Below are positions 1 through 38,704 of a stretch of 64,000 nt of DNA, one piece after another. The notes under the pieces are model-generated. The model worked only from the letters and a program-made list of their open reading frames with translations, made no database searches and was not told where the DNA came from. The stretch is from an uncultured Candidatus Saccharibacteria bacterium. Lineage in GTDB: Bacteria; Patescibacteriota; Saccharimonadia; Saccharimonadales; CAIOMD01. The stretch spans positions 5,829-69,828 of the forward strand of contig CAZMHM010000001.1 of NCBI GenBank assembly GCA_964566135.1. Reading direction: 5' to 3'. The translations under genes were made by a program, and so were the position numbers. The first letter of the stretch is position 1, and each line of letters begins with the position of its first letter.

Positions 1-180
1 AGCCACTCTGTCATGGACGGTAGTCGGTGAATCAAGCTCTATCGCTGTAGCGGCCGTAAGTCCTACCGCGTACGCAGGCATTGCAGCGCTTGCAATGGTA
101 ATATCGAGGCTTCGCTTTGTTTTGGAATACAGGTATGGGTTGGAGGTGTGTACCATCAGGTAAGAGGATAATACAGCCAT
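1..180 (-). CDS. Partial CDS (N-terminus only, runs off the window): bacterial sugar-transferase-like protein
   Basis: Minus-strand ATG at 180-178. Translation MAVLSSYLMVHTSNPYLYSKTKRSLDITIASAAMPAYAVGL... shows the KRxxDI motif plus a hydrophobic helix typical of polyprenyl-phosphate glycosyl-1-P transferase N-termini. Too short to appear in the ORF track. Confidence 0.35.
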   Translation of the reverse strand, partial: MAVLSSYLMVHTSNPYLYSKTKRSLDITIASAAMPAYAVGLTAATAIELDSPTTVHDRVA

Positions 181-252
181 TGTTTTAGCGTTGCAATATA
201 CTTTTGTAATTAGGTAATAGCGACTACACAAAATCGGCGTATACTATATGCA

Positions 253-1407
253 ATGTCGGAGCAAAACAAACAAAGTTACGCTTTTGATTTTCCACCTATG
301 CCTGCGCTATCGGCTACTGAGAGTGCCGAAGTAAAAAAAGAGCGCAAATGGCCACGCCGGCTTGCGAAATCTATCTGTGCAGTTGCAATCGGGCTTGCAG
401 TCATAGCCCCACAAGTGCACAAAGTCGACACAATTGTTTCAGCGGAGCGGTACCAGCAAGACGAAGTTGAAATATTACTTGCTGCCGGAGCCGAAACGCT
501 TCCAAAGGGTGGCACAGAGTGGCTGGTGTTTGGAGGTTACGGCCAAAAGTACAGCACAAACGCCGCCCAAGAACTTTTTAATGCCTTAGGTAGCAAAGAA
601 GTAGTAGCCTCTGTTAAATACCCGAACCAAGGGTTTACGATCGACGAGCTAGCAACCTATGTACATGCATACATGAAACAGAGGGGTATGAGTAAGCTTA
701 ATGTTGCTGGGGTAAGTTTGGGTACGCCGACAGCGCTGATGACGCTTGGATATATCCAGGAGCATGCCAATAATCCATTAGCTCAGTATCAAGACATTGC
801 GTTTAGTCCACGTGGCCTTGCGCTCCGTAAACTACCAGAAATCGGCTATTTTATAGCGTATTCATCACCGGCAGATGTACAAGACGCATCACAAGGATAT
901 ATCGCCCAAACAATCGTCTCCAGAATCAAAGGCACAGGTTATGCGCCTGGTATGATTGATAAGTTAATTGTCTCTGGCTTTGATGGTGAGGGGGATGGTT
1001 TGAAATCGATAAATATACTAAACCCCGCCGAATGGCTGAAGCAACAACACAATAATTTAGAAGAAACGTTTAATGACACGCCAACGTTAATGGTTTTGTC
1101 ACAAATGGAAATTGCTGCCGAATTTAATGTGGATGAGCAATGGGAAAAATGGCGGTTAGTGCTTTCGCCTGATTCTTACTTTGGCTATTTTTATCCGTCA
1201 AAGGCCGACCCAACGGTTAATGATGCCGGTGCATACCGTAAATACGAAGTAGCACTCAAGCATTTAGATGTGCCAACAGCCTATGTGCCAACAGGCGAAC
1301 CGGGCCATGCCAATACTGTCGCAACCGCATCGGCGGCTAGTAAGTGGATTGCAATCGATACGGCAGCACTGCCAAGCATTGTGCTCAAACCACATGTCTC
1401 GAATTAA
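253..1407 (+). CDS. Hypothetical membrane-anchored protein, possible alpha/beta-hydrolase fold
   Basis: 384-aa ORF with an N-terminal TM helix (ICAVAIGLAVIAP) and a GVSLG nucleophile-elbow-like motif. No clearer family signature seen. Confidence 0.4.
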   Translation: MSEQNKQSYAFDFPPMPALSATESAEVKKERKWPRRLAKSICAVAIGLAVIAPQVHKVDTIVSAERYQQDEVEILLAAGAETLPKGGTEWLVFGGYGQKYSTNAAQELFNALGSKEVVASVKYPNQGFTIDELATYVHAYMKQRGMSKLNVAGVSLGTPTALMTLGYIQEHANNPLAQYQDIAFSPRGLALRKLPEIGYFIAYSSPADVQDASQGYIAQTIVSRIKGTGYAPGMIDKLIVSGFDGEGDGLKSINILNPAEWLKQQHNNLEETFNDTPTLMVLSQMEIAAEFNVDEQWEKWRLVLSPDSYFGYFYPSKADPTVNDAGAYRKYEVALKHLDVPTAYVPTGEPGHANTVATASAASKWIAIDTAALPSIVLKPHVSN

Positions 1408-1448
1408 AGCGCTATAATGTAAGTAACAAGGTGGTTAAGGAGGGTACT

Positions 1449-2363
1449 ATGGGGCGAAATATCATATTCGGGTATGGTAACGTAGGTCGGCTAATTGCAT
1501 CCGAGTTAGAAGCACGAGGCGAGGAAGTCGTACTAGCCCACCATAAGCAAATCCAAGTGCTGGGCACTGCTGTGGTGGTGGTTGACAGCCTAGACGCCGA
1601 ACAGGTGCGCCAGGCTGCGGTTGGGGCTGATAGACTTTTTATGACGATTGGCCTTGCATATAAGCTCAGTGTCTGGAAGCGAGATTGGCCAATTATCATC
1701 GATAACCTTATTGCTGCGGCGAAAGATAGTGGCGCTAAGATTGTATTCTTTGACAATATTTATTTGTATGGCCCATCGCCATTACAAAATCCTATTACCG
1801 AGCAACACCCTCGACAGACACCTTCCCAGAAAGGCGCCGTTCGCTTAGCACTCATACAAAAACTCGAAGCTGCTATGCAAGCGGGAGTGCAGGTACTAAT
1901 TGTGCGGGCGGCTGATTTTTACGGTCCAAATGTTAGTACGAGCGCCGTGACGATGGCAATTGCTGATATGGCGAATGGTAAAAAAGCCTATTATCTCGGC
2001 GATCCAACAAAGTTGCATAGTTTTACGTATGTTCCAGACGCGGCAAAGGGCGTTGTTGAACTAGCGCTTGCCGATGACACGTATGGCCAAAGTTGGCACC
2101 TACCAACTGTTTCGCCTATGACGGGCCAGGAATTCCTGCAACTCATTACCACAAAGCTCGGCAAAGGGAAGTGGACGGCGCTCAGTAAGGGTGGCGTTAA
2201 ATTTATGGGACTATTTGTGCCGATTTTGCGTGAACTACACGAAATGATGTATCAGTTTGAAAATGATTATGTCTTAGATGATTCGAAGTTTATGAACCGG
2301 TTTCCACATTTCGTTCGTACGGGCTACGAGCAAGGTATAGACGAAACAATTACGTCGCTTTAA
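1449..2363 (+). CDS. NAD(P)-dependent epimerase/dehydratase-family (extended SDR) protein
   Basis: ATG at 1449 is preceded by AAGGAGG. The N-terminus has a Rossmann glycine motif (IIFGYGNVGRLIA). The ORF-track start at 1344 would overlap the previous gene. Confidence 0.65.
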   Translation: MGRNIIFGYGNVGRLIASELEARGEEVVLAHHKQIQVLGTAVVVVDSLDAEQVRQAAVGADRLFMTIGLAYKLSVWKRDWPIIIDNLIAAAKDSGAKIVFFDNIYLYGPSPLQNPITEQHPRQTPSQKGAVRLALIQKLEAAMQAGVQVLIVRAADFYGPNVSTSAVTMAIADMANGKKAYYLGDPTKLHSFTYVPDAAKGVVELALADDTYGQSWHLPTVSPMTGQEFLQLITTKLGKGKWTALSKGGVKFMGLFVPILRELHEMMYQFENDYVLDDSKFMNRFPHFVRTGYEQGIDETITSL

Positions 2364-3046
2364 TTACTCTTTTTGTAGTGACGGTTGCCATATAAGTAGT
2401 ACTGCAAGCCTTGTTGAGTATTGGGCACGTTGTTGGTATCCGAAGTATCGGGCTCAGTAGTGCTTGTTGAAGAAGGCGCTTCGGTAGAGTTTACGGCGTT
2501 TGAAGGAGTATTAGGATCCGAATCGGCTGCCTGGTTACCCATTGATGGCGAGGTTTCAGTACTTGTTGCTGGGGCGGTTGATGTCTCAGAAGGTATTGCT
2601 TGCTTTTCTGCCATAAGTGCATCGGCTTTTGCCTGAATCGATTTATATGCAGAGGGGCCGAAGGTAACAACAAAAATTGCCAGGGGCACTGCCAGGATAT
2701 ACCAAAGTAAAAAGCTCCAACTCGCTTCTTCGGGCACAGGTTTTGCTTTTGGCGTGTGGGTTGTTTTGGGCCACGGCGAAGTCGCGTGTGTTTGGTACGT
2801 ATGAGCAGTTCGTATTGGCGCAGTTTTTGGCTGTGGGGGTGCCGGCGGAGTGTAGTCCATTCGCTTTAATGGATCCGAAAGAACAGTGTAGGCTTCGTTA
2901 ATTAATGCCATGCGCGTGCCATCGCCACCGTTTGCATCGGGGTGATGAACTTTACTCAGGGCTCGATAGTGCTGCTTAATTTCGCTAGAAGTAGCTCCTG
3001 GCGTAACCCCAAGTACCTTGTAGTAGTTAACCTCTGATTTTCGCAT
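2360..3046 (-). CDS. J-domain (DnaJ-like) membrane protein with a Ser/Thr/Pro-rich tail
   Basis: The N-terminus YYKVLGVTPGATSSEIKQHYRALSKVHHPD...INEAYTVLSDPLKR is a canonical J domain with HPD. It is followed by one TM helix and a low-complexity tail. Confidence 0.75.
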   Translation of the reverse strand: MRKSEVNYYKVLGVTPGATSSEIKQHYRALSKVHHPDANGGDGTRMALINEAYTVLSDPLKRMDYTPPAPPQPKTAPIRTAHTYQTHATSPWPKTTHTPKAKPVPEEASWSFLLWYILAVPLAIFVVTFGPSAYKSIQAKADALMAEKQAIPSETSTAPATSTETSPSMGNQAADSDPNTPSNAVNSTEAPSSTSTTEPDTSDTNNVPNTQQGLQYYLYGNRHYKKSN

Positions 3047-3185
3047 CAGCTTATAGTATACCGCGAAAATATGAGTAAGCTGTGAGCGACAGGGGTGACA
3101 ATCTGCTTGACAAGTGGGTAGCTGGTAACTGTTTAAGGGCGCAGTAGCGCCAAATAATATGTACCGGCTTTTCCGATGTCAAAAA

Positions 3186-3917
3186 TTATATGCCGCTTAC
3201 GTTGAATAATTGGCCAATACCGTATGTTACTGCCATTGCAATCGCACCACCCAAAACAACTCTGATTGTTGCTTTTTTGGCTGACGAACCGCCCACTTTA
3301 GCGCTAACCATGCCTGTAAGGGCAAGCGCGAGTAGTACAGAAACAAACGTAACTGGTACTCGTAGATTTTCGGGAGGTAGCAAGATTGCCGCCATAGGGA
3401 TAATTGCACCAGCAGTAAATGCTGCCGCTGACGCAAACGCGGCATGCCATGGGTTTGTGAGGTCGTCTGGATCGATACCAAGTTCTGCATCGACATGCGC
3501 TGCAAACGCGTCATGCGCCGTTAGTTCTTTTGCAACTTGCTCTGCCGTAGCGCGTTTGAGCCCTTTGCCCTGATAAATTGCAGTTAGCTCAGCCAACTCT
3601 TCTTTGGGCATGTTTTCTAGCTCCCATTTTTCTTTTGCGAGTAGTGCCTTTTCAGTATCGCGCTGGGTACTAACAGATACATACTCACCGGCAGCCATAG
3701 AAAGCGCGCCAGCCAACACGCCTGCCAAGCCCGCCACTAAAATTGCGTTTTTTGATGTCGTTGCACCGGCCACGCCAACTACCAAACCAGAAATTGAGAC
3801 GATGCCGTCGTTGGCGCCTAAAACCGATGCGCGTAGCCAGTTAAGTTTTGAACCCGAAGCGCTATCGTGCGGTTCGCCACCGCTGTGATGTGCTGTACTG
3901 TGTGAAACTCGTGCCAT
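3186..3917 (-). CDS. VIT1/CCC1-family iron/manganese transporter
   Basis: Motifs GANDGIVS and AGEYVSVSTQRD, plus a C-terminal block of TM helices, are typical of the VIT family. Confidence 0.8.
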   Translation of the reverse strand: MARVSHSTAHHSGGEPHDSASGSKLNWLRASVLGANDGIVSISGLVVGVAGATTSKNAILVAGLAGVLAGALSMAAGEYVSVSTQRDTEKALLAKEKWELENMPKEELAELTAIYQGKGLKRATAEQVAKELTAHDAFAAHVDAELGIDPDDLTNPWHAAFASAAAFTAGAIIPMAAILLPPENLRVPVTFVSVLLALALTGMVSAKVGGSSAKKATIRVVLGGAIAMAVTYGIGQLFNVSGI

Positions 3918-3973
3918 ATTTACTCCTCAATATAATTGTACGCTTATAGCGCAAACCTATATATAATGCAGTC

Positions 3974-4366
3974 ATGGATTATCAAACATGGTATCGGATG
4001 TTAGCGAAACCAGTCTGGGCACCCGCCGAATGGGTCTTTGGCGCAGTATGGTCGGTGCTATATCCGCTTATCATTGGCATTAATATCTACATCATTGTTT
4101 TGCTTGTAAAAGGCAAGATAGGTTGGCTCATTGCATTACCGTTTTGGCTCAATTTAGTATTTAATGCTATCTTTACGCCGATTCAATTTGGGCTACGCAA
4201 TAACGCTTTGGCATTGGTAGACATTGTTCTAGTTTTAGCAACAATCATTTGGGCGATGATTGCGATTTGGCCATATGCTCGCATCGCATTCTATGCTTTT
4301 ATCCCCTATGCAATTTGGGTCAGCATCGCTACGGCGCTACAAATCTATATAACTACTCATAACTAA
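3974..4366 (+). CDS. TspO/MBR-family (tryptophan-rich sensory protein-like) membrane protein
   Basis: 130-aa Trp-rich multi-TM protein. The N-terminus WYRMLAKPVWAPAEWVFGAVWSVLYP resembles the TspO signature. Confidence 0.6.
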   Translation: MDYQTWYRMLAKPVWAPAEWVFGAVWSVLYPLIIGINIYIIVLLVKGKIGWLIALPFWLNLVFNAIFTPIQFGLRNNALALVDIVLVLATIIWAMIAIWPYARIAFYAFIPYAIWVSIATALQIYITTHN

Positions 4367-4372
4367 ACCTAG

Positions 4373-5020
4373 TTATGGCCCGGTAGTAGTACAACGGTCA
4401 AGCGAAGAGTTATTACGCAATCCTGCGTGCATAACCACGACATAGATATTCGTTTGGTCTAATAACTTTTTTGCTTTTGCGACACTAATACCAATATCAC
4501 AATATTTGGCGTTTAGGATAACGGCTTTATGCTCGGGGCTATTCATCCATGCTTCGACAACATCATGCTCGTTATTGTAGTTGCCTCTTGCGAGGTTCTC
4601 GCCGGCAGTTTGGTAGTTGTAGTGTGCGCTTGTAATAAAATTCCAAGGCGTCAGTCCGCTCGGGGAGTTGTGTGCAAAATAATCAACAGTAATCATATCG
4701 TTAAGCTTTGCTTGCGAGCTTTCAGTTAGTTCGGTGCTGTGCCGCAGTTGGCTTAAACCTAATTTTGCGCGCTCATCATTCACGTATTGCTCAATAAAGT
4801 AGGGGTTAAGTTTTTCGTTTGGCAAAACACGTTCTTGAATTTCTTCTTGTAACTGTTTGACCATATCAATCGGGGTTGCCTCGAACCCAGTCGCGGTTTT
4901 AGGGTTCAAATTAAAAAGCTCATATTTAAAACGTGCAAGATACATTGCCATAAATGAGAGTGCTAAGATTACGATTACTGCAAGTGCCATCTGCAGTATT
5001 TTTACGTATGATTTACGCAT
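4373..5020 (-). CDS. CAP/SCP (PR-1-like) domain protein, membrane-anchored
   Basis: HNSPSG...GENLARG...AWMNSPEHKAVILNAKYCDIGISV matches the CAP-domain core. An N-terminal TM helix is present. Confidence 0.7.
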   Translation of the reverse strand: MRKSYVKILQMALAVIVILALSFMAMYLARFKYELFNLNPKTATGFEATPIDMVKQLQEEIQERVLPNEKLNPYFIEQYVNDERAKLGLSQLRHSTELTESSQAKLNDMITVDYFAHNSPSGLTPWNFITSAHYNYQTAGENLARGNYNNEHDVVEAWMNSPEHKAVILNAKYCDIGISVAKAKKLLDQTNIYVVVMHAGLRNNSSLDRCTTTGP

Positions 5021-16570: not shown

Positions 16571-16599
16571 CCATATCTGTTAATTCTTATTAATATTTC

Positions 16600-16628
16600 T
16601 TGCACATCATAGGCGATATAGCTATTAT
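16600..16628 (+). promoter_or_regulatory. Sigma70-like promoter, TTGCAC-17 nt-TATTAT, for the GC-rich RNA/RT unit
   Basis: TTGCAC at 16600-16605 and TATTAT at 16623-16628 with a 17-nt spacer. The predicted start near 16635 lies 3 nt before the 5' arm of the long-range helix. Confidence 0.5.
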
Positions 16629-16634
16629 TGACTC

Positions 16635-17125
16635 AGCCACGGTACACCGTGGGCCTTGGGGCTAGATTTTGTACGGCGCGGGCAACCGTGCTCGAGTTGC
16701 TAGTTACGACTAGTACTCAAAAATGTCGTCGCTATGGTGGCTCGGCTTGGTCGTTTGCACTCGCTTGCGAGGGCTACGTCCTGCCTCTGCGGGTGGTCCT
16801 GTTTTCTGGGGCGCTCGCTCTTCACCTCTCTGTGGCTCGCACCGTCATCGTCGCGCGCAAGCGCGGTGGTGGGCGAGCTCGGAGCCGTCTTGATGCGCGC
16901 GTACGTCTGAGTGACCAGGCGCACGTGTCTCGATGGCGTGTGGACGCGTTCTGTTGCGCACACACGGCGACGGCACGTCGGCACTTGCGACCGCGACTCT
17001 CATGCTGAGTCTGTGGCTCGCTCCGACGACGATGGTGGTTACCAAACGGTGTGGCAAAGTATGACCCAAGGCCCATCGGTAACCGTCGTGTTTACGAGTG
17101 GGGTAGGGCGCTTCTGCGCCCGCCC
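16635..17125 (+). ncRNA. GC-rich structured non-coding RNA upstream of the RT (candidate retron msr-msd-like RNA)
   Basis: The ends pair (16638-16660 with 17065-17090, about 20 bp) and G16661 is left unpaired. A nested helix joins 16840-16853 to 17024-17037, and several small hairpins include a GCAA tetraloop at 16852-16865. Every frame gives only junk ORFs, and the composition jump is abrupt. Confidence 0.6.
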
Positions 17126-17141
17126 TGCTCACTCAACCTGT

Positions 17142-18119
17142 ATGACTAATCCTGATAGATTTTATGACCGGTATCGGCAACGCAACGCGAGCCTATTTTT
17201 AGAAGCAGCAAGTACGCTTGGCGAGTTTGCTGATGGCGAACAACCGGTCTTTACCCCGTATATCCCCAAAAGGCAGACACCAGAAAAAACAATTTGGATG
17301 CCAAACCAAGCCATGATTGAAGTGCATGGGCGCCTTAAGAGCGCGCTCGAAATAGAGCGCCCGCTATTTTTAGGCCCATCATATGGTGGTATTACTGGTG
17401 GCTCGCCTGCTCGTAACATTGCACCTCATACGCCAAACAGATATTTTTATCAGCTTGATTTTGCCAATGCGTACAGCCAAGTAGACGCTGCAAAACTCGC
17501 GCGGCTCATTATTGACGGCCGTGGCACGTATAAAGAAATTGAGGCTGTGCAGGCGGTGCTCGAAACCTATTGTCTTACGCCAACAGGTACCGGTTTAGCA
17601 CGTGGCGGGCCATTATCACCATACTTGTTTAATTTGTACTGCGAAGAGCTCGATTGGGAGCTACAAGGCTATACCGATAGGCGCGGCATCACGTACACCC
17701 GGTATCTCGATGATTTAACGTTCTCGCGGCCAGATAATGGATTCCCCATCCGCGATACTATTACCGCCCCCGAGCGGAGTGATATTCGCGCAATTATCGA
17801 TAACAACGGGCTTACCCTAAACCCTGCAAAAACTCGGGTTAGCGATGTGCATGATGCACCAGTAATAATTACCGGTCTGCAGCTTGATAAAAACGGCCAA
17901 TGGCACATTAAAGATAAAGCCGCTCGCGAAGCCCGAGCTAAACTGCTAGCTCAGCACGGCATGTTTGCTGGCACCTTACTACAAAAACAGGTGCGCGATT
18001 TAGCAGCCGGCTATAAAGGCATGCTAGATGCTGCCGAACATGGCAAAAAGCGCTCAAAAAGTGAGCGCCAATTAGGCGAGCTTGCCGAAAGATTATTAGT
18101 AGAAATTCCAGCACTCTAA
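17142..18119 (+). CDS. Reverse transcriptase, retron-type (325 aa)
   Basis: RT motifs seen: YIPKRQTPEKTIWMP, YFYQLDFANAYSQV, GGPLSPYLFNLYCEELD, YTRYLDDLTFS, LTLNPAKTRV and VIITGLQL (a VTG-like motif). The ATG at 17142 is the first start after the structured RNA; the ORF-track start at 16911 lies inside the ncRNA. Confidence 0.85.
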   Translation: MTNPDRFYDRYRQRNASLFLEAASTLGEFADGEQPVFTPYIPKRQTPEKTIWMPNQAMIEVHGRLKSALEIERPLFLGPSYGGITGGSPARNIAPHTPNRYFYQLDFANAYSQVDAAKLARLIIDGRGTYKEIEAVQAVLETYCLTPTGTGLARGGPLSPYLFNLYCEELDWELQGYTDRRGITYTRYLDDLTFSRPDNGFPIRDTITAPERSDIRAIIDNNGLTLNPAKTRVSDVHDAPVIITGLQLDKNGQWHIKDKAAREARAKLLAQHGMFAGTLLQKQVRDLAAGYKGMLDAAEHGKKRSKSERQLGELAERLLVEIPAL

Positions 18120-18199: not shown

Positions 18200-18227
18200 G
18201 GCGGGGGCAAGCGAACTTGCCCCCGCC
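18200..18227 (-). terminator. GC-rich hairpin without a U-tract, downstream of the 141-aa gene
   Basis: GGCGGGGGCAAG-cgaa-CTTGCCCCCGCC, a perfect 12-bp stem lying 6 nt after the minus-strand stop. No T- or A-run on either side. Confidence 0.5.
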
Positions 18228-18233
18228 GAAGCG

Positions 18234-18659
18234 TCAGATGCTGACGGTCGAGTCAGCCGAGTAGAACGGCTGAAAGTTGCCATAGCGCGTTCTCACCATG
18301 CGGTCGGTGCCAGCGAAGTGCATCCTGAGGATGAGCTCCTTCGAGTTACTGAACTTCCTCAGCCCCTTGGCGTCATAGACGGTTCCGTCGATGTAGTGCT
18401 TGCCGGGGATGGGGGTTCTGGTACCGATGACGAAATCGCGGGAGTGCGGGCCTCGCGGTTCGAGCTGGATGACTCGTTCTTCCACGGTGGCCTGCTCGAA
18501 CCCGAAGCATTCCGCGTTGTCAGGCCGAAGCCCAACCGCGAGCTGTGCATCGAGTCCGTTGACGGTGATGGGCGCTCCTGGAGTCTCACTACCAACGACC
18601 CAAAACCGCACCACGTAGCTGTACGAAGTCTGGGCGTCGATGACCTTGACGGTGTTCAT
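18234..18659 (-). CDS. Hypothetical 141-aa protein in a GC-rich island (orphan)
   Basis: ATG at 18659 with an AAAGG ribosome-binding site and a TATAAT box upstream (plus coordinates ~18720). The product MNTVKVIDAQTSYSYVVRFWVV... has protein-like composition. Four overlapping ORFs in other frames reflect the high GC content. Confidence 0.6.
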   Translation of the reverse strand: MNTVKVIDAQTSYSYVVRFWVVGSETPGAPITVNGLDAQLAVGLRPDNAECFGFEQATVEERVIQLEPRGPHSRDFVIGTRTPIPGKHYIDGTVYDAKGLRKFSNSKELILRMHFAGTDRMVRTRYGNFQPFYSADSTVSI

Positions 18660-18832
18660 GCGATCACGACCTTTGCTATCTTGTCGAAGGTACCTGGGGC
18701 TATGTAGCCTCAAGCTAAGTATATTATAGCATAAGAACAATGAAAAAGCAATATTTGGTATCTGTTACGCACTAGTTCTACGGCATAATATTGCCAAAAT
18801 AGCAATTATTCTAAAATAACACCTAAAAAGTG

Positions 18833-34309: not shown

Positions 34310-35686
34310 ATGCTAAAGAAGATGACAATTCAGCAATTCAGGGGTTTTTACTCAAAGCAAACATTTAATTTTGCAATTCCTGATGGCAATAAAGGCAGTG
34401 GCTTGACAGTAGTTGTTGGGCCAAATAATTCAGGAAAAACGACTTTTATTGAAGCGCTGACTTTCCACCATAATAGCGGAAACTCAAAACGCTTTAATGA
34501 CTCAGAGCGCCATGGGAAACGGGATCCAATAATAACATACACAACTGACAGTGGTACTGAAAGGATAACGAATGTTAACAAAGGCTCTCAAATAACTGAC
34601 AATGGTTTTCGGTTAAATGAGTTAAAAATTGAAATTGCTCCGTCAAGAAGATGGTGGCAGGCGCAATACAGCGGAACAATGGATGACGTAACATACGCAA
34701 ATCAATCAGCAATATCAAGTATTCGGAACTCTGGCGACCTAGGTACGGCAAAAAAAATCGCTAACATGTATGTTGATCAGTTACATAGAGACAAGCTTTC
34801 TGCATTTATTAAAAGTTTGGTTCAACATTTTTATTTTTGGACCGTCGGAACAAGAGAGCCCGCTGGTGACTATCTGAAATATGTCACTGGAAACAATGTT
34901 GAGCACGCTGTCGATATGCTTGGGGACGGAATCATTTCTTTATTTCGAATCGCAGCCCAGCTAACAAGCAAATCCACCCAAGATTATATTCTCGTTATTG
35001 ATGAGCCTGAACTTTCCTTACACCCCACAGCTCAAAAAGCGCTTTATGATGTTCTCGCTGACGAAGCCCGCCAAAAGCAAATAGTAATTGTGACTCATTC
35101 TCCATATTTCATTAGCTGGGAGAGTATATCTAACGGAGCAAAAATAATTCGGTTAAATAAACATGACGATAAACAATGTGTTGTAAGCGAAATAAAACCT
35201 GGTGTTAATTACAGTAGTTTATTGGATGGGATAATCAAAGATTGGCAACGCCCGGAGTTTCTCGATACAGTCTCTAAAGAAATCATGTTTGCGAATAATA
35301 TTTTGTTCGTCGAAGGTAAAGAAGATGTAGGTCTTATAAGGAAGTGGCTCAAAGATAACGAAATTAACACAAAATATGAAATATTTGGCTATGGTATTGG
35401 CGGCGAAACAAATATGCCATTCTTTCTCAATTTTGCAAAAGATTTGGGCATCAGAAAAGTCGCTTCTCTTTTCGACAAGAATGCGACTAAATATCAGCAA
35501 TGCCTTAAAGACTACCCACAATATTTAGTTACGCAATTGCCCACTGACGATATACGAGATAAATATAAATCTGACGGTACAATAAAGCATATTGGAGTAT
35601 TCGATAGTTCGGGCGAGCTAAAAGACGAATACAGCGATACTTTCACGGAAATAATGGATAATATCGGTAAATACTTCGAAATCTAA
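34310..35686 (+). CDS. OLD-family-like ATPase with a C-terminal TOPRIM-like domain (single-gene, class-1-like architecture)
   Basis: Walker A GPNNSGKTT, Walker B ILVIDEPELSLHP and VTHSPYFIS. The C-terminus has ILFVEGKEDVGLI, GYGIGG and LPTDDIRD (Glu plus DxD as in TOPRIM). The gene is AT-rich (34321-34380: 20 G+C of 60 by hand count). Confidence 0.6.
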   Translation: MLKKMTIQQFRGFYSKQTFNFAIPDGNKGSGLTVVVGPNNSGKTTFIEALTFHHNSGNSKRFNDSERHGKRDPIITYTTDSGTERITNVNKGSQITDNGFRLNELKIEIAPSRRWWQAQYSGTMDDVTYANQSAISSIRNSGDLGTAKKIANMYVDQLHRDKLSAFIKSLVQHFYFWTVGTREPAGDYLKYVTGNNVEHAVDMLGDGIISLFRIAAQLTSKSTQDYILVIDEPELSLHPTAQKALYDVLADEARQKQIVIVTHSPYFISWESISNGAKIIRLNKHDDKQCVVSEIKPGVNYSSLLDGIIKDWQRPEFLDTVSKEIMFANNILFVEGKEDVGLIRKWLKDNEINTKYEIFGYGIGGETNMPFFLNFAKDLGIRKVASLFDKNATKYQQCLKDYPQYLVTQLPTDDIRDKYKSDGTIKHIGVFDSSGELKDEYSDTFTEIMDNIGKYFEI

Positions 35687-35697
35687 ATAATCCGGGT

Positions 35698-36660
35698 ATG
35701 GATACACGCTTACAACCACTATTAGAACGAACAGCTGAGGCATGGCAGGTAACTGCTGATGAAGCCTTAGGCTTGTTAAGTTTGCGGCACCCAAAAGCGG
35801 TGCGTATAAACACACTTAAGGCGAAAAAAACCACGCTAAAAGATATTAAAGCGCTGGGCGTAGAGCTTTCGCCTATTAGTTGGTGCAAAGATGCCTATAT
35901 CGTTACCAAAGGGTATTCAGAGCTCAGCAAAAGCAATTTATTTACCAGTGGCGCATTTATACTGCAAGATCCCGCCAGTTTTGTGCCAGTACTAGCATTA
36001 GACCCAAAAAGTGGCGAATACGTACTAGATATTTGTGCTGCGCCGGGCGGCAAAACTACCCATATTGCAGCACTTAGCAAAAACAAAGCACATATTGTGG
36101 CTAACGATACATCGCGCATCCGCTTTTTTAAGATGCGCAATATATTTGAAACCTATGGTGTGCAAGCCGATACAACCCTGTACGACGGGCGCTTTTTGCG
36201 CAAACACCTGAGGACACAGCAATACGATAAAATCCTGCTAGACGCGCCCTGTAGCGGCGAGACGGCCATAAACCCAGCCAATCCCAAGAGCTACGAGCAG
36301 TGGAGCCCGGCTAAAATCAAGCGCCTTAGCCGCCTGCAAGAACAACTTATTATGATTGCCTACGATTTACTTAAGCCTGGCGGCACATTGGTGTATAGCA
36401 CCTGTACCATCGCGCCCGAGGAAAACGAGCTGGTAATTGATTACCTACTAAAGCGCCGCAGTGCCCAAGTGCAACAAATAGACATCCCCGTAGAGGGCGC
36501 AAAACCTGGCTTAACCAGCTGGCACGGCAAAGTCCTAAACCCCCAAATTGCAAAAACCTACCGAATTTTGCCAACAGATACGCACGAGGCGTTTTTTACC
36601 GCTAAAATCACCAAACCCCTTACCGAGGTCGCCAACGACGAAGACGTCTATTACGCCTAG
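35698..36660 (+). CDS. RsmB/RsmF-family (NOL1/NOP2/Sun) rRNA cytosine-C5 methyltransferase
   Basis: DICAAPGGKT, ILLDAPCSGE and VYSTCTIAPEENE motifs. Confidence 0.8.
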   Translation: MDTRLQPLLERTAEAWQVTADEALGLLSLRHPKAVRINTLKAKKTTLKDIKALGVELSPISWCKDAYIVTKGYSELSKSNLFTSGAFILQDPASFVPVLALDPKSGEYVLDICAAPGGKTTHIAALSKNKAHIVANDTSRIRFFKMRNIFETYGVQADTTLYDGRFLRKHLRTQQYDKILLDAPCSGETAINPANPKSYEQWSPAKIKRLSRLQEQLIMIAYDLLKPGGTLVYSTCTIAPEENELVIDYLLKRRSAQVQQIDIPVEGAKPGLTSWHGKVLNPQIAKTYRILPTDTHEAFFTAKITKPLTEVANDEDVYYA

Positions 36661-36683
36661 TATTATTTATATTCCGCACATGC

Positions 36684-36711
36684 TTGCATTATTTCTTGTA
36701 CAAGATAGAAT
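36684..36711 (+). promoter_or_regulatory. Sigma70-like promoter, TTGCAT-16 nt-TAGAAT
   Basis: TTGCAT at 36684-36689 and TAGAAT at 36706-36711, directly upstream of the GC-rich unit. Confidence 0.4.
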
Positions 36712-36717
36712 TGACTC

Positions 36718-37214
36718 TATCTCGGGTGAACTCATCGAACGTAGATGGGCATCTAGCGAAGCTGGCATGTACTCTGGCTTAGCAGCAACCAAACAGTAGT
36801 CCGCGAGGTTGCGAGACAATGATAAATCTCTGTGTGGCATTTGCCGGAAAGTCCGATTGAACAGACCGGAACTCCGCTTATAAGCGCACAGACGGGTGCT
36901 CCCCCGGTCGGAAAGTACTATCGCTAGAGGTACCGACATAGGAGCAGCCATCGATGCAGCCGCATCGGCCTGAGGCCTCATTCCCCCGGAGGTCGTAAGG
37001 CACCAGATGGCGCACGGTGTGTTTTGCAAACTGCTGGGCATAACCCCCCACGGTCCGCCCGCAGCGAAAACACACTACCAGGCACTCGCGTGTCGTACGT
37101 CCGGCTTGGAAACAGCCCGGCGGATGTCTGTGAGAATTAGCAGACCGACCTTGTGCCAGATACGCCGGTGGGCAGACGGATTCGCTCCGTCTGCCCACCG
37201 GTAGTCCCACCTTT
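36718..37214 (+). ncRNA. Large GC-rich structured RNA candidate, family unresolved (divergent RNase P RNA is one possibility)
   Basis: No credible ORF. Dense hairpins include GCAACC/GGTTGC (36785-36812), CGATGC/GCATCG (~36952-36967), GGCC/GGCC, a long hairpin GTGTGTTTT...AAAACACAC (37016-37075) and a 13-bp stem at 37165-37200 followed by CCCACC and a T-run. GGAAAGTCCG (36845-36854) followed 5 nt later by ACAGA matches the RNase P CR-I string, and CGGCTT at 37102-37107 could form a P4-like helix. Other conserved RNase P blocks were not recognised. Confidence 0.5.
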
Positions 37215-37264
37215 TTGACACTTATGCTTGCAAAATCACCCTGTTATTTGGTAGGGTAATACCC

Positions 37265-38092
37265 ATGCACAAAAGGGAACTATCGCCCCAAGACAAGGGC
37301 GAATTTGTTTTTTTAGATGCCAATTTTGGCACCGAACTCAAAAAAGCAGAAACAGGCGAATTTCGTAAAAACGATCTAGAGTTTATTTGTGATGGCTTAA
37401 ATATCACGCACGAGCTTGCAGTAGCAAACCGTGTATTAATGTTTGCCGCCGGTATTTGCTATACCAAACACCCTAACGGCGAAGTATCAGAAGAACCAGA
37501 CGAAGCAATAGGCGAATTTAGGGGCTTCGAAACTATCCAAATAGATAACGAAACCTACCTAACTGCACTTATTGGCGACGATTTAGTAACCGACGAACCC
37601 CTAAAGCGCTTTATAATTTCCGAACGTGAACGTTACGAATGGATGCTACTACCTGATTATCCACATTACTTTAACCCCGAATTTACCGACCAATGGACAC
37701 GTGTTGCCCAACAGAGCTTTGATTTGCAAGATTTATTGGCCGAGGCAGCATCACGCCTAACATACCAGCCATTTGGCCCAACGCTAGACGACCAATTAAA
37801 CGCGTTAGAGCTTGTTGCAGCGCGCGAATACCAGCTATACCCAGGCGACAAGCTGTATTTAGCTGGTAGCCAAGCGCTACTTGCCGAACCCAGCGCTGCT
37901 ATACCGATTACCCGGCAGCTACCGCTAAACGAATCATCGTTTACCGGGACGTTCGAGGGTTTAACGGTAGAAGAACGCGTAGTAAAGGGCACTAAGGTGT
38001 CACGCCTTTGTCTTGCTGTTACGCTCGATGATGGTTCGTTTGTACTCCAGCCCTGCATTAGCACACACACTGCTGAAATTGTTGCAGCGTAG
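37265..38092 (+). CDS. Hypothetical protein (275 aa, acidic)
   Basis: Long ORF with normal composition. No family recognised. Confidence 0.5.
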   Translation: MHKRELSPQDKGEFVFLDANFGTELKKAETGEFRKNDLEFICDGLNITHELAVANRVLMFAAGICYTKHPNGEVSEEPDEAIGEFRGFETIQIDNETYLTALIGDDLVTDEPLKRFIISERERYEWMLLPDYPHYFNPEFTDQWTRVAQQSFDLQDLLAEAASRLTYQPFGPTLDDQLNALELVAAREYQLYPGDKLYLAGSQALLAEPSAAIPITRQLPLNESSFTGTFEGLTVEERVVKGTKVSRLCLAVTLDDGSFVLQPCISTHTAEIVAA

Positions 38093-38107: not shown

Positions 38108-38704
38108 ATGAGCAATTCAACTTCTCTTAAGGGTGTAAAAAATATCAAAGGATTATGGTGGACAGTCGTTGCAAGCGGCATACTTGGCATGCTGGCGTCG
38201 TTTATTCAGACCATAGAACGTATAGACTACGCAAAAAACCCGACATTGCCGTTAACGTGCGATGTTAATTCGGTGTTTAGTTGCAGCAGCGTGTTCGACG
38301 CCTGGCAATCATCGGTATTTGGGTTTTCTAACTCGTTAATGTGCATTGTGTTCTTTGTATTGCTGATTGGTATTGGCTTAGCAGGCGCTACAGGTAGCGT
38401 AATACATAAAAATGTACGCCTATTTGTACACTTTTTGACGGTCTTCTTTTTGGGCTTTGGTGCTTGGTATTTGTACGAAAGCGCCTGGGTTATTGGCTCG
38501 TTGTGTATCTTTTGTATCTTTTGCTACAGCGCCGTTATTGCTGCCAACTGGGCATGGCTACGTATTAACATTGCCGACTTACCGCTAGCAAGTAGCCACA
38601 AAGCTGGTGTTAACAGGGTGATTAGCAGTGGCGCAGACACATTTGTATGGCTTTTGTGGGCAATACTAATTGCGGGTATGTTGGCGCTCGGAATTCAGCA
38701 CTAA
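38108..38704 (+). CDS. Vitamin K epoxide reductase (VKOR)-family membrane protein
   Basis: TM protein with the loop cysteine pair CDVNSVFSC and an in-membrane CIFC (CxxC) motif. Confidence 0.75.
   Translation: MSNSTSLKGVKNIKGLWWTVVASGILGMLASFIQTIERIDYAKNPTLPLTCDVNSVFSCSSVFDAWQSSVFGFSNSLMCIVFFVLLIGIGLAGATGSVIHKNVRLFVHFLTVFFLGFGAWYLYESAWVIGSLCIFCIFCYSAVIAANWAWLRINIADLPLASSHKAGVNRVISSGADTFVWLLWAILIAGMLALGIQH

Follow-up and report, generated by a model that had tools for sequence, protein, structure and literature searches.

A GC-rich unit in a Saccharibacteria contig as a probable gene for a large structured RNA of a family not in Rfam

In a 64,000-nucleotide (nt) stretch of contig CAZMHM010000001.1 (assembly GCA_964566135.1), from an uncultured Candidatus Saccharibacteria bacterium and hereafter called the window, the gene for an RsmB/F-like ribosomal RNA (rRNA) methyltransferase is followed by a GC-rich unit. 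We interpret positions 36719-37216 as an independently transcribed gene for a structured, multi-domain non-coding RNA (ncRNA) of about 0.5 kb, of a family that is not in Rfam 15, whose product may act in trans through pairing of its C-rich loops. Taken as one explanation, this reading has in our estimate a probability of about 0.6. That the unit is a genuine structured ncRNA gene of an undescribed family is very likely: it has a promoter and a terminator of its own, conservation above the neutral level and helices backed by covariation, transcription itself being predicted from sequence. The novelty lies in an RNA without a match to known families.

Homologous units share the site, following the RsmB/F-like methyltransferase gene, and are found there only in the closest relatives. 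The relatives compared are contexts of methyltransferase homologues, retrieved around that gene. The locus whose methyltransferase is 93% identical to that of the window (L004) has a 1.09-kb gap that holds two complete units in tandem, here L004-A and L004-B, each with its own promoter and terminator, and the loci with an 86% identical methyltransferase (L005/L006) hold one unit. Where the methyltransferase is at most 83% identical (L007, 83%; L008/L009, 75%; L012, 73%; L011, 72%; L003, 66%), the site is empty and the next gene begins 0-48 nt away, a result that covers the syntenic site and not the whole genomes. Lack of conservation in relatives had been named in a preliminary description of this DNA, made from the sequence alone, as a sign of non-functional sequence; the outcome is divided, the unit being kept in the nearest relatives and missing at the site in the others.

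The units are mosaics in which either of two unrelated 5' domains, of about equal length, meets one of two 3' domains at a conserved three-way junction. The type-1 5' domain is common to the window and L004-B (92-93% identity) and the type-2 5' domain to L004-A and L005 (56-59% identity). Types 1 and 2 are 43-47% identical, which is the level of shuffled sequences, and all of the 5' domains measure 223-235 nt. An alpha 3' domain, with 68-80% identity, is found in the window, L004-A and L005, and its counterpart in L004-B is a different domain, beta. The central three-way junction and the terminal hairpin are present in all four units.

The GC content of the unit is 58%, against 45% for the window, and the count of 40 G+C in 60 positions that had been reported for 36961-37020 is correct. 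The other sequence features listed in the preliminary description are likewise present, with offsets of 1-2 nt. The C-rich motif CCCCCGG begins at 36901 and 36983, as described, and CCCCCC at 37044 rather than 37045; GTAGTCC lies near both edges, at 36796 (a shift of 1 nt) and 37201; GGTGGG is at 37167, and the two CCCACC copies are at 37194 and 37206, again with small offsets. The unit had also been called free of open reading frames (ORFs). Taken literally this does not hold, as there are minus-strand ORFs of 124 and 110 amino acids (aa) and a plus-strand ORF of 65 aa, but the non-coding character is borne out. GC content in the unit is flat over all three codon phases, whereas a control at 18.2-18.7 kb is strongly periodic. 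A Pfam search of the unit's ORFs gave no match, the 110-aa minus-strand frame returned only low-complexity matches and no real homologue from 1.84 billion representative proteins, and the plus-strand frame has zero words in common with the protein database. On these grounds we regard the ORFs as devoid of coding signal. A dual function as a peptide-encoding RNA was also considered and rejected: a 31-codon plus-strand frame changes non-synonymously in L004-B and loses its stop codon there.

The promoter proposed earlier, TTGCAT-16 nt-TAGAAT at 36684-36711, was confirmed and forms part of an extended -35 box, ATGCTTGCA. A strict sigma-70 scan did not flag it, because TTGCAT fits only three of the six positions of TTGACA. 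The box occurs five times in the window, each time with a -10-like hexamer about 17 nt downstream, and the same combination stands in front of each of the four homologous units and, in relatives, of the downstream gene. Apparently, ATGCTTGCA is a promoter signature of this Saccharibacteria lineage that is missed by a TTGACA-based scan. All units begin with the pattern (A/G)TGCTTGC(A/T), about 17 nt, TA(G/A)AAT and then a conserved AUC(C)UC, which in its extended form, (A/U)AUC(C)UC, lies 7-9 nt past the -10 hexamer in every unit.

A long perfect hairpin, followed by a short tail and then a T-run, closes each unit, and segment 37164-37216 of the window is the probable terminator and 3' end. The stem previously described here exists, although not with the 13 bp assigned to it: the inverted repeat (37165-37180 / 37186-37201) is perfect over 16 bp and reaches 17 bp if a G-U pair is counted. 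The T-run exists too, but starts 10 nt past the stem and not directly after it. L005 has the same terminal hairpin without change, whereas one U-G wobble occurs in it in L004-A and two compensatory changes (CCAGUGGGCAGGCGGG/UCCGCCUGCCCACUGG) in L004-B, the unit with the beta domain. The promoter of the downstream gene lies outside the RNA (Table 1). In L011, L007 and L003, which have no unit, the same promoter directly follows the methyltransferase stop codon, and it constitutes the right-hand boundary of the inserted unit.

Compared with dinucleotide shuffles, the plus strand of the unit folds 4.3 standard deviations better (z = -4.3) and the minus strand 4.9. Structure models were obtained with RNAalifold on three modules, and pairs were then counted against controls with slid partners. 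The predicted elements are listed in Table 1. In the type-1 5' domain, the one-sided changes that L004-B shows in the long hairpin (part b) keep the pairing through G-U, and the C-run CUCCCCCGG of part c has a predicted probability of being unpaired, P(unpaired), of 0.6. The long hairpin of the alpha domain, GTGTGTTTT/AAAACACAC at 37017/37067, had been recognized in the preliminary description and encloses the loop AUAACCCCCCACGGUCC, as stated there. The window, L004-A and L005 all keep the loop motif GGGYAUMACC(n)CCCCCACGGUC, with P(unpaired) of 0.67-1.0. The helix GGCAC/GUGCC that closes the multi-stem element has a compensatory change from C-G to U-A in L005. Over the four units together, C-runs outnumber G-runs by 15 to 4, and the conserved C-runs are mostly predicted to be unpaired (P 0.6-1.0). 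In L004-B an anti-Shine-Dalgarno-like CCUCCU loop takes the place of the AUUCCCCC loop of the window.

Table 1. Features of the predicted RNA gene and its surroundings (window coordinates; RNA elements are predicted)
Feature	Position	Strand	Details
RsmB/F-like rRNA methyltransferase gene	35698-36660		flanks the unit
Promoter	36680-36711	+	extended -35 box ATGCTTGCA 36680-36688 (TTGCAT 36684-36689), 16-nt spacer, -10 TAGAAT 36706-36711
Predicted transcript	36719-37216	+	498 nt, 57.6% GC; from conserved AUCUC start motif to end of T-run; ends inferred
Type-1 5' domain, part a	36720-36816	+	four-way junction closed by UCUC/GAGA, with three hairpins; RNAalifold on window and L004-B
Type-1 5' domain, part b	36829-36892	+	long hairpin UCUGUGUG/CGCACAGA bearing CR-I-like GGAAAGUCCG at 36846-36855
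Type-1 5' domain, part c	36894-36949	+	internal-loop hairpin displaying C-run CUCCCCCGG at 36898-36907
Core three-way junction	36947-37011	+	common to all four units in the alignment
Core helix H1	36947-36951 / 37007-37011	+	GCCAU/AUGGC
Core helix H2	36952-36967	+	CGAUGC-AGCC-GCAUCG
Core helix H3	36968-37001	+	GCCU...AGGC with C-rich loop AUUCCCCC
Alpha 3' domain, long hairpin	37016-37076	+	GGUGUGU.../...ACACACU, UGC-GGGC/GCCC-GCA; conserved loop AUAACCCCCCACGGUCC at 37040-37056
Alpha 3' domain, multi-stem element	37081-37157	+	closed by GGCAC/GUGCC
Variable hairpin in multi-stem element	37096-37123	+	contains CGGCUU 37102-37107; GGCU paired with AGCC 37114-37117
Hairpin UCUGU/GCAGA	37127-37144	+	conserved loop UGAGnnUUAG
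Terminal hairpin, tail and T-run	37164-37216	+	stem 37164/5-37180 with 37186-37201/2; tail GUAGUCCCACC (10 nt); T-run 37212-37216
Promoter of downstream gene, outside the RNA	37224-37264	+	ATGCTTGCA 37224-37232; TAGGGT 37252-37257; 7 nt before ATG 37265
Gene for 275-aa protein, no family match	37265-38092	+	flanks the unit; followed by VKOR and class I tRNA synthetase genes
ATGCTTGCA sites in the window	36680, 37224, 63954	+	
ATGCTTGCA sites in the window	59485, 53221	-	
Box related to ATGCTTGCA	16599		

The predicted helices are retained across the units, as judged from alignments of two to four sequences. In the type-2 5' domain, 100% of cells are paired, compared with 35-45% for slid partners, and 13 pairs carry double changes compared with 0-1; none of 500 shuffles reached 13. 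The alpha 3' domain has 94.5% of cells paired (34-38% slid) and eight double changes (0-2 slid). For the core junction the corresponding values are 98.3% (28-38% slid) and three double changes, one per helix (0-1 slid). The plus strand is indicated by the orientation of promoter and T-run, which is kept in all units, by the type-1 stems, in which 6/6 one-sided changes are G-U compatible on that strand, and by refolding of reverse-complement alignments, in which the plus strand was favoured in two of the three modules.

Third-codon-position identity in the flanking genes served as a neutral yardstick and amounts to 71-75% between the window and L004 and to 61-63% in the comparisons with L005. 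Between the window and L004-B the type-1 5' domain reaches 92-93% identity, against 71-75% at synonymous sites, and the alpha domain is 79-80% identical against the same 71-75%, and 68-76% identical against 61-63%. With identities above the third-codon-position values, the type-1 and alpha modules evolve more slowly than neutral sites, whereas the type-2 module changes at approximately the neutral rate (56-59% identity) and yet retains its helices.

These data bear on the possibility that the unit is non-functional GC-rich DNA, either a horizontally acquired fragment or a decayed gene, that folds well because of its composition. Only three close genomes carry units, members of the family are scarce in public data, both strands fold more stably than shuffled sequences, and other GC-rich islands of probable foreign origin occur at 16.6-18.7 kb. 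Such DNA would nevertheless not be expected to surpass synonymous sites in conservation or to maintain helices by compensatory changes, and the complete promoter and the hairpin with T-run are found in 4/4 units, both members of the tandem pair included. The unit also has no trace of a reading frame. We therefore consider a non-functional origin very improbable.

A second alternative, raised in the preliminary description, was a highly divergent RNase P RNA (rnpB) in which GGAAAGUCCG would be conserved region I (CR-I) and would pair with CGGCUU as helix P4. The strings themselves are present, with the CR-I-like GGAAAGTCCG at 36846-36855 and ACAGA at 36861 (each 1 nt from the position given before) and CGGCTT at 37102. 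The match to the CR-I core is exact over 10 nt and is followed by ACAGA, and the size and GC-richness of the unit are compatible with an RNase P RNA. No RNase P model (RF00010, RF00011, RF00373 or RF00009) matched the unit, however, at the gathering score or at E<=10, and none matched the relatives at E<=5. In the comparative model the CR-I-like string pairs locally (UCCG 36852-36855 with CGGA 36867-36870), and the proposed P4 partner also lies in a local hairpin (GGCU 37103-37106 with AGCC 37114-37117). Conservation fails for both strings: CGGCUU is confined to the unit of the window, none of L004-A, L004-B and L005 having it, and L004-A and L005 also lack the CR-I string, while L004-B has the string without the partner. 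A long-range P4 between CR-I (GGAAAGUCC) and CR-V (ACAGAAnnCGGCUUA) conserved in the homologues was not found, and neither were ACAGAA, a GGUAAGGGUGAAA-type block or P1 in the unit. With one mismatch allowed, GGAAAGTCCG occurs four times in the window against 2.5 expected, which is near chance. At the syntenic site, moreover, the unit is absent from L003, L007, L008/9, L011 and L012 and doubled in L004, and a site that is empty in some relatives and occupied by a tandem pair in another is a poor fit to a single-copy essential ribozyme. Within the reach of the 64-kb window the RNase P assignment is effectively refuted, and its remaining likelihood is negligible.

The preliminary description had offered a different large RNA as the other alternative, and this is supported by an independent, GC-rich, structured plus-strand unit that belongs to no known family. 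Rfam 15 at gathering thresholds identified four tRNAs in the window and nothing else. At E<=10, none of the 4227 families matched within the unit in a search of 36600-37300, save for microRNA noise on the terminal hairpin, and the relatives' units gave nothing at E<=5. The families named in the preliminary description for comparison (RNase P, tmRNA, OLE, GOLLD, ROOL and raiA) are thus without a match. Transfer-messenger RNA (tmRNA) was rejected on two further counts, as ARAGORN also finds only the four tRNAs in the window and the 3' hairpin of the unit is a continuous 16-bp stem with a 5-nt loop, not an acceptor and T-arm. An integron cassette (no attC core sites; own promoters) and TIGR arrays (units of 36 nt) were likewise rejected. 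So was a cis-regulatory leader, given the unit's own terminator and a downstream gene that is equipped with a separate promoter and also occurs where there is no unit.

Further members of the family were sought in several collections. Comparison of the unit by blastn with phage and plasmid collections gave no match, and motif scans of viral contigs yielded zero, zero and one match; the last (L013) was discarded as a chance occurrence within a coding region of a 66%-GC phage contig. A scan of a metagenome collection with the terminal-hairpin motif returned only the contig of the window. For the genome collection the neighbouring methyltransferase was the query, and the scan gave one locus, without a unit. 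A search with the downstream gene led only to a 99%-identical strain, in which the assembled sequence breaks off at the promoter box. With nhmmer, the window and 47 kb of related loci gave nothing beyond the units already known, and the covariance model built on the core (R1) recovers only the four units in 111 kb. As motif, translated, nhmmer and covariance searches add no member, the family is rare in the accessible data. In the literature we found no relevant description of such an RNA from Saccharibacteria or Patescibacteria.

Short-read assemblies of the same strain and of a 94%-identical strain break in or at the unit, where L002 ends at 36731, L016 starts at 36791 and L015 starts at 37222. 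These breaks could reflect low coverage or strain-level heterogeneity of the unit.

Because the RNA ends ahead of a downstream gene that carries a promoter of its own and occurs in relatives lacking the RNA, we infer that the RNA would act in trans. The conserved, displayed C-rich loops (CUCCCCCGG, AUUCCCCC and AACCCCCCACGGUCC, with CCUCCU in one relative) would then be the functional sites, which may pair with G-rich or Shine-Dalgarno-like stretches of other RNAs or may capture a loop-binding factor, and the exchangeable 5' and 3' domains would alter specificity or stability. C-rich motifs are indeed displayed in predicted loops, and the loop motifs are conserved across units and predicted to be unpaired. 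The mechanism is drawn by analogy, and we put it forward tentatively.

Several points weigh against our reading of the unit. The 10-nt gap between the terminal stem and the T-run is atypical for an intrinsic terminator, and the strand of the alpha domain is ambiguous, with the minus strand folding slightly better. The evidence base is four distinct sequences from three closely related genomes. The covariation numbers come from two to four sequences, and the structures were predicted from those same sequences, so that the covariation is supportive and not conclusive. Regarding the mechanism, sites complementary to the conserved loop number seven in the 64-kb window against 6.1 expected, which is the chance level, and the main conserved loop, CCCCCCACGGUCC, is no clean anti-Shine-Dalgarno sequence. 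A length of about 500 nt with elaborate junctions far exceeds the needs of a base-pairing regulator and would suit a scaffold or an accessory cassette just as well, and the patchy distribution fits an accessory or mobile function equally well.

The size and the junctions lead to a different functional reading, in which the RNA is architectural, or 'ornate', and serves as a scaffold through its three-dimensional fold rather than as a base-pairing regulator. It could then form multimers of RNA alone, in the manner of ROOL, GOLLD and OLE, or belong to a protein complex as its RNA subunit or sponge. Large orphan RNAs of this sort form homo-oligomers (PMC12286853). The size, GC-richness, multiple junctions and conserved three-way-junction core of the unit are as expected for this class, and the type-2 5' domain keeps its structure (13 compensatory pairs) while its sequence drifts neutrally. 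The accessory, patchy distribution and variable copy number are also as in ROOL and GOLLD. On the other hand, the unit has no Rfam match to OLE, GOLLD, ROOL, raiA or HEARO, its locus lacks a prophage or tRNA context, and neither palindromic kissing loops nor tetraloop-receptor pairs were recognized in it. Two unrelated 5' domains would also be hard to square with one precise quaternary architecture. An ornate RNA is in our view rather unlikely.

Alternatively, the unit could be an accessory cassette with a mobile or defence function, such as the template or guide of a reverse transcriptase (RT) or nuclease encoded elsewhere, or a non-autonomous element, placed at the promoter of the downstream gene near a defence hotspot. 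This would agree with its presence and absence among close relatives, the one tandem pair and the mosaic modules, and with the 9-nt direct repeat ATGCTTGCA that flanks it. The surroundings are in keeping with such a cassette as well: the patch is hypervariable (the downstream gene is 48% identical, its neighbours 92-93%), the slot upstream of the methyltransferase holds different nuclease or restriction systems by strain, and a retron-type RT lies elsewhere in the same window. The flanking repeat is, however, a common -35 box that is found at empty sites too, and for this reason is no evidence of a target-site duplication. There is no adjacent RT, transposase or integrase in 3/3 genomes, where the unit's neighbours are the RsmB/F-like methyltransferase and the 275-aa-type protein, and the unit has none of the retron-like terminal a1/a2 repeats seen in the retron unit at 16.6-17.1 kb. 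No other copies occur in the 64-kb window or in 47 kb of related loci, and phage, plasmid and viral collections gave no matches. We judge the cassette improbable. A transposable or mobile element in the narrower sense, such as a miniature inverted-repeat transposable element or an insertion sequence, was rejected, with no terminal inverted repeats and no other copies in the window or related loci.

The 275-aa acidic protein encoded next to the predicted RNA gene is itself hypervariable. Between the window (37265-38092) and L004 (2009-2848) it is 48% identical, compared with 93% for the methyltransferase and 92% for the VKOR-family protein. It has no Pfam, NCBIfam, PADLOC or Protein Data Bank sequence match, and AlphaFold without an alignment gives a pLDDT of 33, which is unusable. 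With the -10 box 7 nt ahead of the ATG, its mRNA appears to be leaderless. The VKOR-family gene (38108-38704, plus strand) stands between the 275-aa gene and the tRNA synthetase gene in the window, L004 and L015 and is absent at the syntenic position in L003 and L008/L009, making it another presence/absence polymorphism. On the other side, immediately upstream of the methyltransferase gene, lies a defence hotspot of variable content, which is occupied in the window by an OLD/AriA/GajA-like ATPase-TOPRIM nuclease (34310-35686, plus strand), in L007 by an MmeI-type restriction-modification enzyme (272-3013) and in L011 by a type I restriction system (104-4994).

Another GC-rich unit of the window, at 16599-18119 on the plus strand, consists of a promoter box, CTTGCA-N17-TATTAT (16599-16628), and a non-coding stretch of about 500 nt with 60-68% GC, bracketed by a 22-nt inverted repeat that is a1/a2-like (16639-16660 / 17065-17086). 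A reverse transcriptase follows on the 3' side, with retron RT_II-A as its best PADLOC match (3e-28). Its true start is probably ATG 17143, because the RT domain begins about 117 codons into ORF 16911-18119. The stretch has no Rfam match. Segment 16599-17140 is the probable retron ncRNA, likely the 'first' GC-rich unit of the preliminary description, and is unrelated to the present unit. Beyond it, 18203-18660 (about 60% GC) seems non-coding when read on the plus strand but is a minus-strand coding sequence of very strong codon periodicity, one phase reaching 0.82-0.85 GC. A terminator hairpin of its own lies at 18203-18228. The sequence is without a match in Pfam or PADLOC, and its product could be a retron effector or the product of a gene acquired horizontally from a high-GC donor.

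Structured bacterial RNAs of more than about 400 nt and of unknown function are rare and have repeatedly yielded new biology, as in RNase P, group II introns, OLE, the ROOL/GOLLD nanocages and HEARO/omega RNA. Saccharibacteria and the other bacteria of the candidate phyla radiation (CPR) have genomes so small that non-coding DNA of 0.5-1 kb is a considerable cost, and relatives of this phylum are now culturable and genetically manipulable. To our knowledge, almost nothing is known of RNA regulators in Saccharibacteria or the CPR. A family that swaps entire domains about a constant core, and differs between strains whose neighbouring proteins are 86-93% identical, would offer a new and tractable example of modular RNA evolution. 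The analysis also shows that the tempting RNase P reading is wrong and that the other GC-rich unit of the window is a different thing, probably a retron.

A bolder proposal is that the unit represents a new class of large modular RNA in episymbiotic CPR bacteria, in which a core and a terminal hairpin would carry interchangeable 5' domains of about 230 nt and 3' domains of about 210-270 nt, swapped by recombination and stacked in tandem, with a mechanism that has no described counterpart. This is speculative. If true, 'specificity' modules would be exchanged like cassettes, for example in host interaction, phage defence or an RNA-only machine.

Among the RNAs with which the unit can be compared, RNase P RNA (RF00010/RF00011) is alike in its size of about 400-500 nt, in being GC-rich relative to the genome and in the 10-nt identity GGAAAGUCCG. 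It differs in its covariance model, P4, other conserved regions and P1, none of which the unit satisfies, and at the syntenic site the unit is neither conserved nor single-copy in close relatives.

The closest functional parallel to the mechanism proposed here is with the C-rich-loop RNAs of Gram-positive bacteria (RNAIII, RsaE/RoxS and LhrC1-5), which are also independent genes with their own promoter and terminator and present C-rich motifs in several hairpin loops with no G-rich partner in cis. Staphylococcus aureus RNAIII, with 514 nt and about 14 hairpins, is in the same size class as the present RNA, and the LhrC genes of Listeria are siblings arranged in tandem that each have a separate promoter and terminator (PMC2790875, PMC4132741). 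One tandem pair is likewise known in the present family. No sequence or Rfam relationship connects these RNAs with the unit, whose loops are of the CCCCC(C) type and not UCCC, the CCUCCU loop being found in one unit only. The present RNA also differs in having no encoded peptide, more elaborate junctions and whole-domain swaps between units. The likeness is one of functional analogy only.

The ornate RNAs OLE, GOLLD, ROOL, raiA and HEARO are highly structured, multi-junction molecules of 200-800 nt, which came from GC-rich or ORF-free intergenic regions and were patchy in distribution and of unknown function at discovery (PMC12286853, PMC12968392). The present unit resembles them as a large, structured, multi-junction RNA from a GC-rich intergenic region with a patchy distribution. 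It differs in that it matches no ornate covariance model, has no phage or tRNA neighbourhood and no IscB- or OLE-type protein genes alongside, and has a much more restricted known distribution, of three genomes. We know of no description of whole-domain modular replacement for OLE, GOLLD, ROOL, raiA or HEARO. Within the window itself, the msr-msd ncRNA of the probable retron at 16.6-17.1 kb has no sequence similarity to the present unit and differs from it in having an RT directly 3' and a 22-nt inverted repeat, but is likewise a GC-rich, structured unit of about 0.5 kb with the same type of promoter box and an accessory distribution.

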